DNA of 64,000 bases from Eledone cirrhosa (taxonomy: Eukaryota), in the NCBI GenBank assembly GCA_964016885.1, contig OZ024760.1, forward strand, positions 29,140,001 through 29,204,000, in the 5' to 3' direction. Made by a program: the position numbers and the translations under genes. A model generated the notes under the pieces. The model was not told the origin of the DNA. It made no database searches and worked only from the letters and a program-made list of their open reading frames with translations. Position 1 is the stretch's first letter. Every line of letters starts with the position of its first letter. Shown one piece after another: positions 29,095-50,768 of the stretch.

Positions 29095-29283
29095 GTCTGT
29101 GAATTGGCAGTATCGGGAGACGGTCGGACGCCATGTTTTGCAGCAAAGAGTTACGTCCCTTTATGGTCTGAGTTCAAATCCCGTCGAGGTTAACTTTGCC
29201 TTTCATCCTTACGGGGTCGATAAAATAAAGTACCAGTAATACACTGGGTAATTGCTGGCCTTGTGCCAAAAGTAGAAACAATT
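29095..29283 (+). mobile_element. SINE family B inserted into a palindrome arm, 18-bp TSD
   Basis: attatttaatatagaaat at 29069-29086 and 29281-29298. Confidence 0.8.
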
Positions 29284-29397
29284 ATTTAATATAGAAATGG
29301 CTTCTACAGGACTAGAACTGTTTCATTTGTATGGATGAGAATTTCTTACAAATAAAACTGTTCTAGTCCTGTAGAAGCCATTTCTATATTAAATAAT
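29281..29397. repeat. Palindrome with 38-bp perfect arms (same family as 50642-50768); probable Penelope-like remnant
   Basis: 29281-29318 is the reverse complement of 29360-29397, and inner pairing continues imperfectly. Confidence 0.8.
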
Positions 29398-29871
29398 GAT
29401 ATACATGCACATATATATCCTCTTTTACCTGTTCCAGCCATCCAATATATATATATCAGCATCATGTTTTCGTCTGCTTTTCCATGCTTTCGTGGGTTGG
29501 ACAGGTCCTACTCTCCTTTTGTCGTGTCCCTTCGTCATCTCCTCTGCCAGTCTTAGCAATTTGAGGCCCGCTCTCACAACCTCTACCCAAGTCTTTCTTG
29601 GTCATCCTCTACTGTGGCTTTCTTCCACTGAGATTTCCTGGCATTTCTTCACCTATCAGCCATTGTCCATGTGTATCACATGTCGATACCAACACAGACT
29701 TCTCTCATACCCACCACCTTGGATTCCCTTGAAACCCATCTTCTCTCTCAGCTCGGCCAAGATCTGCCATTCTCTCACATTTATATTGCACATCCTACGA
29801 AACATGGCTGCTTCATTTCTCTACTATCCACGCATGTCCTCTGCAGTCACTGAGTATATATATATATATAT

Positions 29872-30201
29872 CATTCATCATCATTATCATTTTACGTCCG
29901 CTTTTCCCTGCTTGCAAGGGTGGGATGGGAACTGATTCTGGCTTGATTTCTACAGCTGGATGCCCTTCCTAACACCAACCTCATTTACAGTGAGCGCTGG
30001 GTGCTTTTTTGCCACGACCACTTTACAGTGGAATGATAGAGACCCTAGTCCCTATCATCTCATTTCTACAGCTGAGTAAACTGGAGCAATGTGAAATAAA
30101 GTGTCTTGCTCAAGGAAACAACACATCACCCGGTCTGAGAATTGAACTCACAACCTTTCGATTGCAAGACCAATGCTCTAACCACTAAGCCATGTGCCTC
30201 C
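29872..30201 (-). mobile_element. SINE family A, near full length
   Basis: Reverse complement of 28424-28775 with a small internal deletion. Confidence 0.88.
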
Positions 30202-30212
30202 ATTATATATAT

Positions 30213-30346
30213 ATATTTATTAAAATAACAAATTAAAGTTTAAGCAACGAATCGCTGCTTTCACTCTTAACGGGATCTTCTGAAACCGTTAAGGGTGAAA
30301 GCAGCGATTCTTTGCTTAAACTTTAATCTGTTATTTTAATAAATAT
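30213..30346. repeat. Palindrome with ~61-bp arms; probable Penelope-like remnant
   Basis: Arms 30213-30273 and 30286-30346 with 3 mismatches; the downstream tail recurs at 33640-33780 and inverted at ~42440-42505. Confidence 0.8.
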
Positions 30347-30469
30347 TTGCTCTACGGTTCTTATATATTTGATATATATTTATCCTTATCGAGCCCTCTT
30401 TGGATTCTAGTCTTCACATTTATTATTATTACTATATATATATATATATATATATATATATGTGTGTGT

Positions 30470-30815
30470 GTGAAGGTGCATGGCTTAGTAGTTAGAGCAT
30501 CAGGCTTACAATCGTGAATTTGATTCTCAGACCAGGCTTGTGTTCTTGAGCAAGACACTTTATTTCACATTGCTCCAGTTCACTCAGCTGTAGAAATGAA
30601 TTGTGACATCACTGGTGCCAAGCTGTATCAGCCATTGCCTTTCCTTTGGACATCATCAGTGGTGTGGAGGGGGGAGACCGGTATATATATGGGGGACTGC
30701 TGGTCTTCCACAAACAACCTTGCCCAAACTTGTGCCTCGGACAGTGGGGGGGGGGGGGGCTTTCAAAGTGTAAAACCATGGTCATTTGTGAAGAAAGGGG
30801 GTCTTTAGCCTTTCC
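30470..30815 (+). mobile_element. SINE sharing the family A head and core but with a different 3' tail
   Basis: tggcttagtagttagagc...ttgagcaagacactttatttcacattgctccagt then an unrelated tail; a tail fragment also lies at ~38225-38345. Confidence 0.75.
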
Positions 30816-47559: not shown

Positions 47560-47882
47560 CAATACGCAATACATTTTTTCATATGTAAACGAAACTTCCT
47601 CGTTTTTTTATATTATATACATATATATATATATATATATATATATATATATGTCTGTATATATATATATATGTCTGTATATATATATATATATATATAT
47701 ATATACGTGACAAGTGGAGAGATGCTGAATAGGACCCATCCCACCCTTGCAAGCTGGGAAAAATGATGATGATGATGATGTCTGTATATATATATATATA
47801 TATATATATATGTGTGAATGAAGTAATTCCATCGGAAAAGTCCAGGAAAAAAGAGTGCTCTATGTAAGCAACAGAGCTTAAT

Positions 47883-48020
47883 TATTATTATTATGTAATA
47901 AACAACATAAGGCAATTATTCCATTTACCAGTGGTTTCTTAAAAGCAAAACCTTTTGCTTTTAAGAAACCACTGGTAAATGGAATAATTGCCTTATGTTG
48001 TTTATTACATAATAATAATA
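47883..48020. repeat. Perfect palindrome with 68-bp arms and a 2-nt spacer
   Basis: 47883-47950 is the reverse complement of 47953-48020; contains GAAACCACTGGTA (47965-47977). Confidence 0.9.
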
Positions 48021-48505
48021 TATATATATATATATATATATATATGTCCGTATATATATACTTATATGTCCGTATATATATTTATATATGTATATATATA
48101 TATACGGACATATATATATATATATGTCCGTATATATATATATATGTCCGTATATATATATATATATATATATATATATATATATATATATATATATATG
48201 TCCATATATATATATATATATATATATATATATATATATATATGTCCATATATATATTTATATATATATATATGTCCGTATATATATTTACTCCACTAAA
48301 CTGTTGAGTGCTTTATATCAGTTATAAAATTTTTTTAAGCTTGTTGAATCCCAACATATATATATCCCACTGCATATATATATATATATATATATATATC
48401 AGTATATACCATATATACCGTATATATGTCTGTATATGCATGTATATATATATATATATATATATATATATCTATAAATACATTATATTCTTCGTTGTAA
48501 CACAG

Positions 48506-48748
48506 GACCCTGTAAACCCTGCTGAGACAGTAATTGTGATCAAAAGTCTTGTCCCAGGTGGCGTTGCTCAGCAGGATGGGCGGTTGTTACCAGGTGACAG
48601 GTTAGTGTTTGTTAACGATGTCAATTTGGAGCACGCTACATTGGATGATGCTGTACAGGCTCTGAAAGGTGCTCCCAGAGGCACAGTTGTCATTGGAGTT
48701 GCCAAACCTCTACCATTAACAGCTAATATACCCCAGTCAGATCAAGAC
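48506..48748 (+). CDS. PATJ: Patj/MPDZ-family exon C (remainder of second PDZ, equivalent to MPDZ PDZ5)
   Basis: Acceptor ttcttcgttgtaacacag|GAC and donor GAC|gtgagt; 243 bp = 81 codons. DPVNPAETVIVIKSLVPGGVAQQDGRLLPGDRLVFVNDVNLEHATLDDAVQALKGAPRGTVVIGVAKPLP... joins exon B as ILDYQ|DP. Confidence 0.95.
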
Positions 48749-49339
48749 GTGAGTTGCCATTTCATTTCATTTTTATATTAATGGTTTGTTTTCACTTTAT
48801 GCTTTTTTTCTATAAATATATATGTATGTACGTATGTACGTATGAGTGAGTGTATATATATATATATATATATATATATATATATATACATGTATATATT
48901 ATATCATCATGTATATATTATATATATATTATGTATATATTATATCATCATGTATATATTATATATATATTATGTATATATTATATATATATTATGTATA
49001 TATTATATCATCATGTATATACTATATATATATTATGTATATATTATAAATATATATATATGAGTATGTATATATATATTATATATATACATATATATAA
49101 GTGTATATATATCTATACATGTATAAATATATATATATATATATATATAATTATATATATATATGTGTGTCTATATATATATATATATATATATATAATT
49201 ATATATATATATATATATGTATATATATATATATATATATATATATATATATATATATATATATATATATATACTTCTGTTTGTTGTTTATAGCTTTCTT
49301 TACAAAGCTTTTTTCTCTTTCTGTCACTGACTGCGTGTT

Positions 49340-50420
49340 TTGCTCTCTCTCTCTCTCTCTTTTTCTCTGTTTCACTCTCCATCTCTCTCTCTCTCTCTCT
49401 CTTTCTCTCTCTTTCTCTGTCTCACTTTCCATCTCTCTCTCTCTTTCTGTCTCACTCTCCATCTCTCTCTCTCTTTCTGTCTCACTCTCCATCTCTCTCT
49501 CTCTCTCTTTCTCTCTCTTTCTCTGTCTCACTTTCTCTCTCTCTCTCTCTTTCTGTCTCACTCTCCATCTCTCTCTTTCTCTCTCTCTCACTCTCCATCT
49601 CTCTCTCTCTGTCTCACTCTCCATCTCTCTCTCTCTGTCTCACTCTCCATCTCTCTCTTTCTCTCTCTTTCTCTGTCTCACTCTCCATCTCTCTCTCTCT
49701 CTTTCTCTGTCTCACTCTCCTCTCTCTTTCTCTGTCTCACTCTCCTTCTCTCTCTTTCTCTGTCTCACTCTCCATCTCTCTCTCTCTGTTTCACTCTCCA
49801 TCTCTCTCTCTCTGTTTCACTCTCCATCTCTCTCTCTCTCTGTTTCTCTCTCCATCTTTCTCTCTCTCTCTTTCTCTCTCTTTCTCTGTCTCACTTTCCA
49901 TCTCTCTCTCCCTTTCTGTCTCACTCTCCATCTCTCTCTTTCTCTCTCTCTCACTCTCCATCTCTCTCTCTCTGTCTCACTCTCCATCTCTCTCTCTCTG
50001 TCTCACTCTCCATCTCTCTCTCTCTCTCTTTCTCTCTCTTTCTCTGTCTCACTTTCCATCTCTCTCTCTCTTTCTGTCTCACTCTCCATCTCTCTCTTTC
50101 TCTCTCTCTCACTCTCCATCTCTCTCTCTCTCTGTCTCACTCTCCATCTCTCTCTTTCTCTCTCTTTCTCTGTCTCACTCTCCATCTCTCTCTCTTTCTC
50201 TGTCTCACTCTCCTCTCTCTTTCTCTGTCTCACTCTCCTCTCTCTTTCTCTGTCTCACTCTCCTTCTCTCTCTTTCTCTGTCTCACTCTCCATCTCTCTC
50301 TCTCTCTCTCTTTCTCTCCATCTCTCTCTCTCCCTCTCTCCATCTCTCTCTCTCCCTCTCTCACATCTCTCTCTCCCTCTCTCACATCTCTCTCTCTCTC
50401 TCTCTCTCCATCTCTCTCTC
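49340..50420. repeat. ~1.1-kb polypyrimidine (CT)n-based minisatellite
   Basis: Anchor tgtctcactctccatc within variable (CT)n runs. Confidence 0.92.
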
Positions 50421-50641
50421 AATGAACCCATTTGATAAAATATATTGATTTACTACATTTAGCCATGTGCAATATATCAAAATATTAGGACATAGTGTAT
50501 ATATATATTTCATCTATTATATATATGTATATATATATATATATGTATATATAATATATACACACTTACACACCACAAACACACTATATATATATATATA
50601 TATATATATATATATATACACATACATATATATATAAACAA

Positions 50642-50768
50642 ATTTAATATAGAGATGGCTTTTACAGGACTAGAACCGTTTCATTCGAAGGAAATCATCA
50701 AAGCTTTCCTGATGATTTCCTTCGAATGAAACACTTCTAGTCGTGTAGAAGCCATTTCTATATTAAAT
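50642..50768. repeat. Palindrome with ~59-bp arms containing hammerhead core words
   Basis: Arms 50642-50700 and 50710-50768; CTGATGA 50709-50715, GAAAC 50728-50732, GTC 50740-50742; stem I is not well formed. Confidence 0.8.

Follow-up and report, generated by a model that had tools for sequence, protein, structure and literature searches.

Insertions of Penelope-like elements (PLEs) are 5'-truncated and often lie beside an inverted 5'-truncated copy; they often carry a tail of 30–40 bp at one end and hammerhead ribozymes in their pseudo-long terminal repeats (pLTRs), while the Naiad and Hydra elements insert into (TA)n, as described by Craig et al. (2021; PMC8557442). At AT-rich DNA, a purified PLE protein cleaves both strands and extends them; its reverse transcription begins at two internal RNA sites, between which lies the tail, and hammerhead cleavage is dispensable for PLE insertion in vitro (Frangieh et al., 2024; PMC11167929). 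The present work concerns six palindromes in a 64-kb stretch of the genome of Eledone cirrhosa (GenBank assembly GCA_964016885.1, contig OZ024760.1; G000:C21:29140001-29204000 in our numbering). The whole stretch is called the window below and all positions count from its first nucleotide; the genome comprises 3.0 Gb in 1796 contigs, and loci elsewhere in it are cited by L-numbers. A preliminary description, made from the sequence alone, had attributed the palindromes to reverse transcription that stalls or snaps back on stem II of a hammerhead.

The palindromes are best explained as short non-autonomous PLE-like insertions, in which both cut target strands likely primed reverse transcription from two start sites; we put the probability of this reading at about 0.6. 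Directly observed are the architecture, family structure and flanks of the palindromes, the hammerhead-free state of the window copies and, in the same genome, an intact PLE whose 3' ends are built alike.

Architecture, families and flanks of the palindromes

All six palindromes (29281–29397, 30213–30346, 32307–32467, 35262–35391, 47883–48020 and 50642–50768) were confirmed at their reported coordinates. They were assigned to family A (the copies at 29281 and 50642), B (30213), C (32307), D (35262, a relative of C) and E (47883). The complementarity of the arms, expressed as matches per aligned columns, was 51/58 and 54/63 in A copies 1 and 2, respectively, 60/67 in B, 76/80 in C and 68/69 in E, while D, with 49/72, is a weak palindrome, whose terminal inverted repeats of approximately 22 bp enclose a patchily paired interior. 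An independent scan for non-low-complexity palindromes in the window returned five, four of them among the six and the fifth at 2567–2642, and none in each of five block-shuffled control windows; the scan missed 29281–29397 and 35262–35391 and is therefore not a full confirmation of the set. The earlier division into four families stands, while their description as unrelated does not, since C and D are related and all families are built alike, each with a short box where the tail begins. The tails of D and C are identical at 61/81 positions and their right arms at 47/82 aligned columns, with 17 unaligned.

Each palindrome consists of two partial copies of a unit, joined head-to-head with the 3' ends outward. 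Comparison with monomers and longer forms identifies the arms as 5'-truncated units, so that an inverted 5'-truncated partial copy is present in all six cases; the unit size is only about 200–370 bp. When each family was searched together with its flanks against the genome, the repeat always extended past the palindrome on one side only. The non-duplicated tail that had been noticed on several copies is thus a feature of all six: it is element-encoded, 66–88 bp long and kept among the genome copies. Including a sibling family H, described below, all seven tails (A1, A2, B, C, D, E and H) start with the box RCTCTRY 3–10 nt past the AT-rich end of the arm; the 8-nt form RCTCTRYT, which occurs 30 times per 128,000 position-strands in the window, was found in six of the seven, B having G instead of T after the box.

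The window is AT-rich and densely packed with (TA)n, and most ends of the window and genome copies border on (TA)n, either directly or with (TG)n/(CA)n in between. Both orientations were found at many loci, mostly in (TA)n, among 544 (E), 1381 (A), 1226 (C) and 2009 (B) first-look candidates. In an alignment of 22 E copies (that of the window and 21 other loci) the 66-bp tail stood beside one arm, in either orientation, with its outer end abutting (TG)n/(CA)n and then (TA)n, while the other arm ran into (AT)n. One E copy (L019) was tail-less and some C copies (L090, L111) were two-tailed. Two single-arm C monomers (L112, L115) share 374 bp, made up of the tail, the arm and approximately 165 nt beyond the axis.

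A short size combined with long inverted arms and TA-rich flanks would also suit DNA transposons, either palindromic miniature inverted-repeat transposable elements (MITEs) or foldback elements with TA targets, or Helitron-like elements with a terminal hairpin, but the two ends of the palindromes are not mutual inverted repeats and one of them carries the conserved tail, the ends are fixed while the centers vary between copies, and the single-arm monomers exist, which makes this origin very improbable. The MITE reading was rejected because no duplication was readable beyond the TA repeat and the outer end of the tail does not form an inverted repeat with the outer end of the tail-less arm, and the Helitron-like reading because the ends in the examined copies are not TC...CTRR and because of the monomers.

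Penelope-like elements in the same genome

GIY-YIG matches are very abundant in this genome: all 150 that were scored, out of 10,596 first-look candidates, passed the Pfam cut-off. One intact-looking PLE (L182, G000:C1:145869000-145877000) has a 938-aa frame with reverse transcriptase (RT) and GIY-YIG domains and pLTRs of 1.06 kb; a second copy (L183) shares 97.7% identity with it. In this PLE family the 3' end occurs in two forms, a short one followed by (AT)n (L162, L017) and one longer by 62 nt and also followed by (AT)n (L182, L183, L017, L020), and at L017 the short and the long form stand head to head. At the place of the RCTCTRY box, the PLE tail has the variant ACTCGTGT. Our own hammerhead descriptor, specified below, gave no match in this PLE.

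In the window itself, a tblastn search with three PLE proteins of this genome gave no match at E≤1e-3. With no PLE-type open reading frame (ORF) combining RT and GIY-YIG in the window, the window copies can be at most non-autonomous or truncated. The RT at 23151–24476 (+) is a fragment of the long interspersed nuclear element (LINE) type (RVT_1, 73.8 bits), unlike the PLE RT of this genome. The ORFs adjoining C copies were also considered as a coding partner and rejected, being either of LINE-type RT or without a family.

Hammerhead searches and the sibling family H

The window copies are free of hammerheads. The descriptor (CUGANGA, helix II, GAAA, helix III, UH and helix I) gave zero matches in the window in both its strict and relaxed forms, compared to 0 in 20 strict and 0–2 each in relaxed searches of shuffled sequence. 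No ribozyme was found by Rfam at gathering score in the whole window, where two tRNA-like heads of short interspersed nuclear elements (SINEs) were the sole matches, nor at E≤10 in positions 29000–51000 among the best 150 of 363 weak matches, mostly microRNA-like hairpins, nor in six small loci around the window elements, for which the control L075 was positive. A type I hammerhead, with both cores, helices I–III and the UH site, is incomplete in every window copy, and all but the 50642 copy lack CUGANGA.

Hammerhead motifs seem to be extremely numerous in the genome as a whole: a search with RF00163 started from approximately 415,510 rough candidates at first look, and of the 74 candidates scored, 72 matched at E≤1 and 19 exceeded the gathering score. 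The descriptor also found many further motifs in the fetched flanks, compared to 0 in 20 shuffled windows. Within flanks of about 3 kb, matches to other hammerhead families were located at L007:3099, L008:2651, L013:1811, L015:2625, L036, L039:114, L077:1930, L103 and L109; in one of these families helix III is nearly palindromic and helix I reads TATTTTRT/ATAAAATA.

Canonical type I hammerheads lie in family H, the build of which is identical to that of the window palindromes. At L075, (TA)n and then a one-sided tail precede a palindrome whose arms each contain an Rfam Hammerhead_1 (37.8 and 31.7 bits), and (AT)n follows. The tail lies 3' of the hammerhead in non-palindromic H copies, indicating that each arm reads in sense from the axis outwards, and the unit ends either at the AT-rich site or one tail-length further. 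The axis of H is a CGGA-GCT-TCCG hairpin approximately 45 nt upstream of the hammerhead, and this hairpin is already present in the non-palindromic form. Two long forms of H, of 2.2–2.6 kb each, stand head to head at L172 (approximately 4258–9072, G000:C14) with the axis near 6822, which is a mirror build at the kilobase scale.

The association of Penelope-like elements and hammerheads that had been assumed at the outset therefore holds at the level of the element class, through the inverted partial copies, the one-sided tails, the TA targets and family H. The sequence motifs reported at the palindromes themselves are present. GAAAC or GTTTC, occurring 134 times per 128,000 position-strands in the window, is present 3–38 nt off the center in five of the six palindromes, while D carries GAAAT; E contains GAAACCACTGGTA, B contains GAAACCGTTA, and the 50642 copy contains both GAAAC-7nt-GTC and the one retained CTGATGA, at 50709.

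Position of the axes and formation of the palindromes

The axes fall on self-complementary stretches and vary: within a 12-bp stem II in E, at its own hairpin in H and often around CCWGG in C. Longer relatives of E (L061, L063, L064, L066–L070) contain CUGAGGA, GAAA and UA together with helices I (5–7 bp), II (12 bp, including one G.U pair) and III (3 bp), and L070 is an E palindrome of approximately 230 bp with one whole motif of this kind per arm. Judged by its sequence, the motif of these long forms is hammerhead-like: the descriptor was positive, Rfam did not recognize a hammerhead in it at E≤10, and its minimum-energy fold differs from the hammerhead fold (z = -1.71). The window copy of E has the structure of L070 minus everything between the two helix II hairpins, which places its axis inside helix II, where A-U stands in place of the G.U pair; other E relatives have different junctions, located at short repeats. 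The earlier statement that the axis lies at stem II of a hammerhead thus applies only to E, in whose longer relatives the hammerhead-like motif is complete.

Family E provides some support for the originally proposed route. In this route RT would stall on stem II and the nascent complementary DNA (cDNA) would copy itself, so that an inverted copy of the 3' half takes the place of the ribozyme's 5' half; the full motif in the longer E relatives, the axis of the window copy in stem II with A-U in place of G.U, and the outward sense of GAAAC in families A, C and E are all in line with it. L070, however, has the whole motif in each arm, and the E short form may derive from a longer palindrome of this type by loss of the central part between its two stem II hairpins; the failure of the long form as an Rfam hammerhead and its different minimum-energy fold also speak against a ribozyme stem as the cause. 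Snap-back also predicts that the central loop reads in the sense of the tail-bearing arm, which was observed in two of the ten E copies with the exact 42-nt center and in one of 15 B copies. In the remaining 8/10 and 14/15, respectively, the loop was in the sense of the tail-less arm, and these counts fit two independently templated arms. Moreover, a copy templated on a tail-less first arm cannot acquire a tail. A flip-flop between CC and GG centers in E was considered as a recurrent event and dropped, because among all ten genomic copies both with CC share one ATT-repeat length variant, so that two lineages fit equally well.

The other families also argue against snap-back. CTGATGA-12nt-GAAA in family A lies inside the arm, off the axis, with the core present in 4 of 19 arms; its 12-nt spacer is a poor hairpin that pairs with the other arm rather than with itself, and the 50642 copy, in which both cores are present, has no stem I and a stem II that is only weak. 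In B, copies with a longer symmetric center, in which the unit reads ...AGAAGATCCCGTTAAGG in the sense direction, demonstrated that the 12-nt center of the window copy belongs to the tail-less arm and that GAAAC (30282) is a product of the arm-arm junction. In C, only one of 47 arms (29 loci) and neither of the monomers L112 and L115 had a CUGANGA in the 110 nt preceding the conserved GAAAC core, whereas the model would predict CTGANGA with stem I immediately 5' of the axis in full copies; the preliminary description had itself named the lack of an upstream CUGANGA as evidence against its mechanism, along with ordinary MITEs having terminal inverted repeats bounded by target-site duplications, and the former is what C shows, while the latter is not the case, as the true ends are not inverted repeats. 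The axis of H, finally, is remote from its hammerhead by the 45 nt mentioned above. The axes of C also differ from copy to copy, with 18 different centers in 18 palindromic copies. With no hammerhead in the window and a loop that mostly belongs to the tail-less arm in B and E, neither stalling or snap-back at a ribozyme stem II nor its generality is supported, and we regard this route as improbable.

A stronger competitor, although still an unlikely one, is that each palindrome arose once by any route and was then multiplied, with the whole of tail and palindrome as the template and the tail-less end as the 5' end. All 40 scored genome copies of B cover the whole 233-nt query with 92–97% identity, and once oriented, 14 of 15 share one orientation of the center; the exact 42-nt center of E occurs only ten times genome-wide, in copies that are 95–100% alike, and its two loop states could be two lineages, as both CC copies share the shorter ATT-repeat variant. 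This uniformity does not extend to C, where every center is different, and in detail not to B, where the 15 copies have 15 different strings. The coexistence of two-tailed, one-tailed and monomer forms argues for repeated formation, and RT would have to read through a perfect hairpin of 60–80 bp in the template RNA.

The preferred explanation is PLE-like insertion with priming on both strands. According to this model, both cut target strands would prime reverse transcription of the element RNA at two alternative start sites. The arm begun at the far site would include the tail, whereas the arm begun at the near, AT-rich site would not. As the two cDNAs would have the same sense, they could pair only where the unit is self-complementary, and their junction, at a native hairpin or at a short microhomology, would become the axis. 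The joining stretch would be stem II of the hammerhead-like motif in E and no ribozyme helix in the other families. Since helix II of E is such a self-complementary stretch, the model also explains why the axis had appeared to lie at stem II, and both the two-tailed and the tail-less copies are predicted by two alternative start sites. The mobilization by a PLE enzyme, the priming on both strands and the manner of joining are probable rather than directly observed, and it is the architecture that suggests mobilization by a PLE.

Several points weigh against this explanation. The long form of H, approximately 2.5 kb, is without RT and has no recognizable ORF, and Pfam found nothing in its homologous part. 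The descriptor detected no hammerhead within 1.5 kb of 30 GIY-YIG matches, and a BLAST comparison of the units of families A–E/H with 34 PLE loci, taken from over 10,000 candidates, revealed no sequence link to a PLE coding element, only chance neighbors and TA repeats. The tails of the window copies, 66–88 bp, are longer than the 30–40 bp published for PLEs, the tail of the autonomous PLE of the same genome being 62 nt. Target-primed reverse transcription is not directly shown, as no target-site duplication is readable in the TA repeats. The B copies and the ten short-form copies of E have nearly one structure each and could equally descend from palindromic masters instead of being remade at each insertion. 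Finally, the demonstration of two-strand priming comes from in vitro work on a single lizard element (PMC11167929) and not from this genome.

As a tentative extension, the position of the axis may be non-random: same-sense cDNAs, primed on the two strands of a TA repeat with start sites flanking the RCTCTRY box, would anneal only at a native hairpin such as hammerhead stem II, with the near-site cDNA usually running further. If true, this would turn the palindromes into an ordered, testable model of two-strand PLE integration and give a rule for which elements seed long hairpin DNA.

Neighboring repeats and feature coordinates

The coordinates of the palindromes, their tails and the adjoining SINE are given in Table 1.

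Table 1. Palindromes, one-sided tails and an inserted SINE in the window (a dot marks features without strand).
Feature	Position	Strand	Remarks
A copy 1, one-sided tail	28997..29068	- (sense)	Outer end abuts TA-rich DNA; tail also at other A loci
A copy 1, outer left arm	29069..29094	.	Direct repeat around the SINE (again at 29281-29298), plus an extra 8-nt duplication
tRNA-derived SINE	29095..29280	+	Inserted between tail and palindrome of A copy 1; outside the palindrome family
A copy 1, arms	29281..29397	.	Head-to-head; degenerate center; no CTGANGA; one GTTTC at 29320
B, arms	30213..30345	.	Head-to-head; 12-nt center belongs to the left, tail-less arm
B, one-sided tail, 88 bp	30346..30433	+	Followed by (TA)n
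C, arms	32307..32467	.	Head-to-head; (TA)n at left end; core CCGTCGAAACGG...GTCGGGGTC kept in each arm
C, one-sided tail, 78 bp	32468..32545	+	Followed by TA-rich repeat
D, one-sided tail	35184..35259	- (sense)	Homologous to C tail; outer end abuts (TG)n
D, arms	35260..35391	.	Degenerate relative of C; inverted termini of ~22 bp; GAAAT for GAAAC; right end at TA repeat
E, one-sided tail, 66 bp	47817..47882	- (sense)	Preceded by (TA)n(TG)n; 22-copy alignment
E short form, arms	47883..48020	.	Near-perfect, head-to-head; no CUGANGA; right end abuts (AT)n
A copy 2, arms	50642..50768	.	Right arm: CTGATGA-12nt-GAAAC-7nt-GTC (CTGATGA 50709, GAAAC 50728)
A copy 2, one-sided tail	50769..50839	+	Outer end accurate to ~3 nt; CA/TA-rich repeat next

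The tail of A copy 1 recurs in reverse orientation to the right of 50768 and beside A palindromes at other loci. The junction between the SINE and the arm in this copy was found again at no fewer than 8 of 25 aligned loci, i.e., at least at L032, L033, L037, L039, L043, L046, L058 and L060, so it seems that either a composite of SINE and arm has spread or the site is a hot spot. At L091 (approximately 1380–1450) the 3' end of the same SINE is directly followed by a complete hammerhead motif. Contigs of four public runs covered 28800–30460, including the SINE stretch, only at very high multi-copy depth, and none of them spans it.

A second SINE family, with a tRNA-like head (Rfam tRNA, 30.1 and 30.5 bits) and a (GAT)n-type tail, is present at 43093–43425 (+), approximately 29865–30210 (-) and 28500–28780 (+); its copies lie between TA repeats and one directly abuts palindrome B. 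The left end of palindrome C adjoins a TA-rich microsatellite of approximately 630 bp (31683–32309), which is self-complementary throughout. A decayed hammerhead-family copy is located 280 bp to the right of D, at 35668–35735 (+), with CTGATGA, a good hairpin, approximately 30 extra nt and then GAAATATGTAT; it belongs to the family with the helix I TATTTTRT/ATAAAATA. A purine/pyrimidine-rich imperfect palindrome that had not been listed previously is present at 43440–43620, is repeated elsewhere in the genome and also stands beside the E copy in L070. The region 26001–28000 has an extreme strand skew over 2 kb (GC skew -0.70, AT skew +0.48).

Comparison with known systems

The palindromes of this window receive an ordinary explanation as footprints of a retroelement class that is very abundant here, not as a new ribozyme-driven device. 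Individual copies record which arm bears the tail, which arm runs further into the center and where the two were joined, and such records constitute in vivo evidence bearing on a recent proposal, derived from one in vitro system, that PLEs integrate through two start sites and two strands. The near-perfect hairpins of 60–80 bp, if transcribed, would form double-stranded RNA, which could matter for RNA editing or silencing.

Palindromic MITEs of the Tc1/mariner type with a TA target resemble the window elements in size, long inverted arms and TA-rich flanks, but differ from them in that the latter have a conserved one-sided tail, monomer forms and varying centers. The non-LTR retrozymes of animals are, according to Cervera and de la Pena (2020; PMC7229834) and Li et al. 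(2026; preprint 10.64898/2026.07.22.740005), also short, non-autonomous, associated with type I hammerheads and thought to be PLE derivatives; they form head-to-tail tandems with an active hammerhead per unit and circular RNAs, in contrast to the window elements, which are head-to-head, single and without a hammerhead. The "HHR_core", defined in PMC8557442 by cuganga, a spacer of 7–17 nt and gaaa with unfitting helices, is matched by CTGATGA-12nt-GAAA of family A (50709–50731), although the term was coined there for coding Naiad elements, while in family A the motif sits in a non-coding palindromic stub.

The closest resemblance is to insertions of the endonuclease-containing (EN+) PLEs, i.e., Penelope/Poseidon, Neptune, Nematis, Naiad and Hydra (PMC11167929 and PMC8557442). 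The window copies differ from these by having neither RT nor GIY-YIG coding in or beside them, by the lack of a hammerhead and by their small units of the size given above, whereas the inverted 5'-truncated copy, the one-sided tail and the (TA)n or AT-rich target are the same, as are the two alternative 3' ends, with hammerheads occurring here in sibling families of the same genome. The architecture of the palindromes is the published anatomy of EN+ PLE insertions and, as such, an already known pattern.

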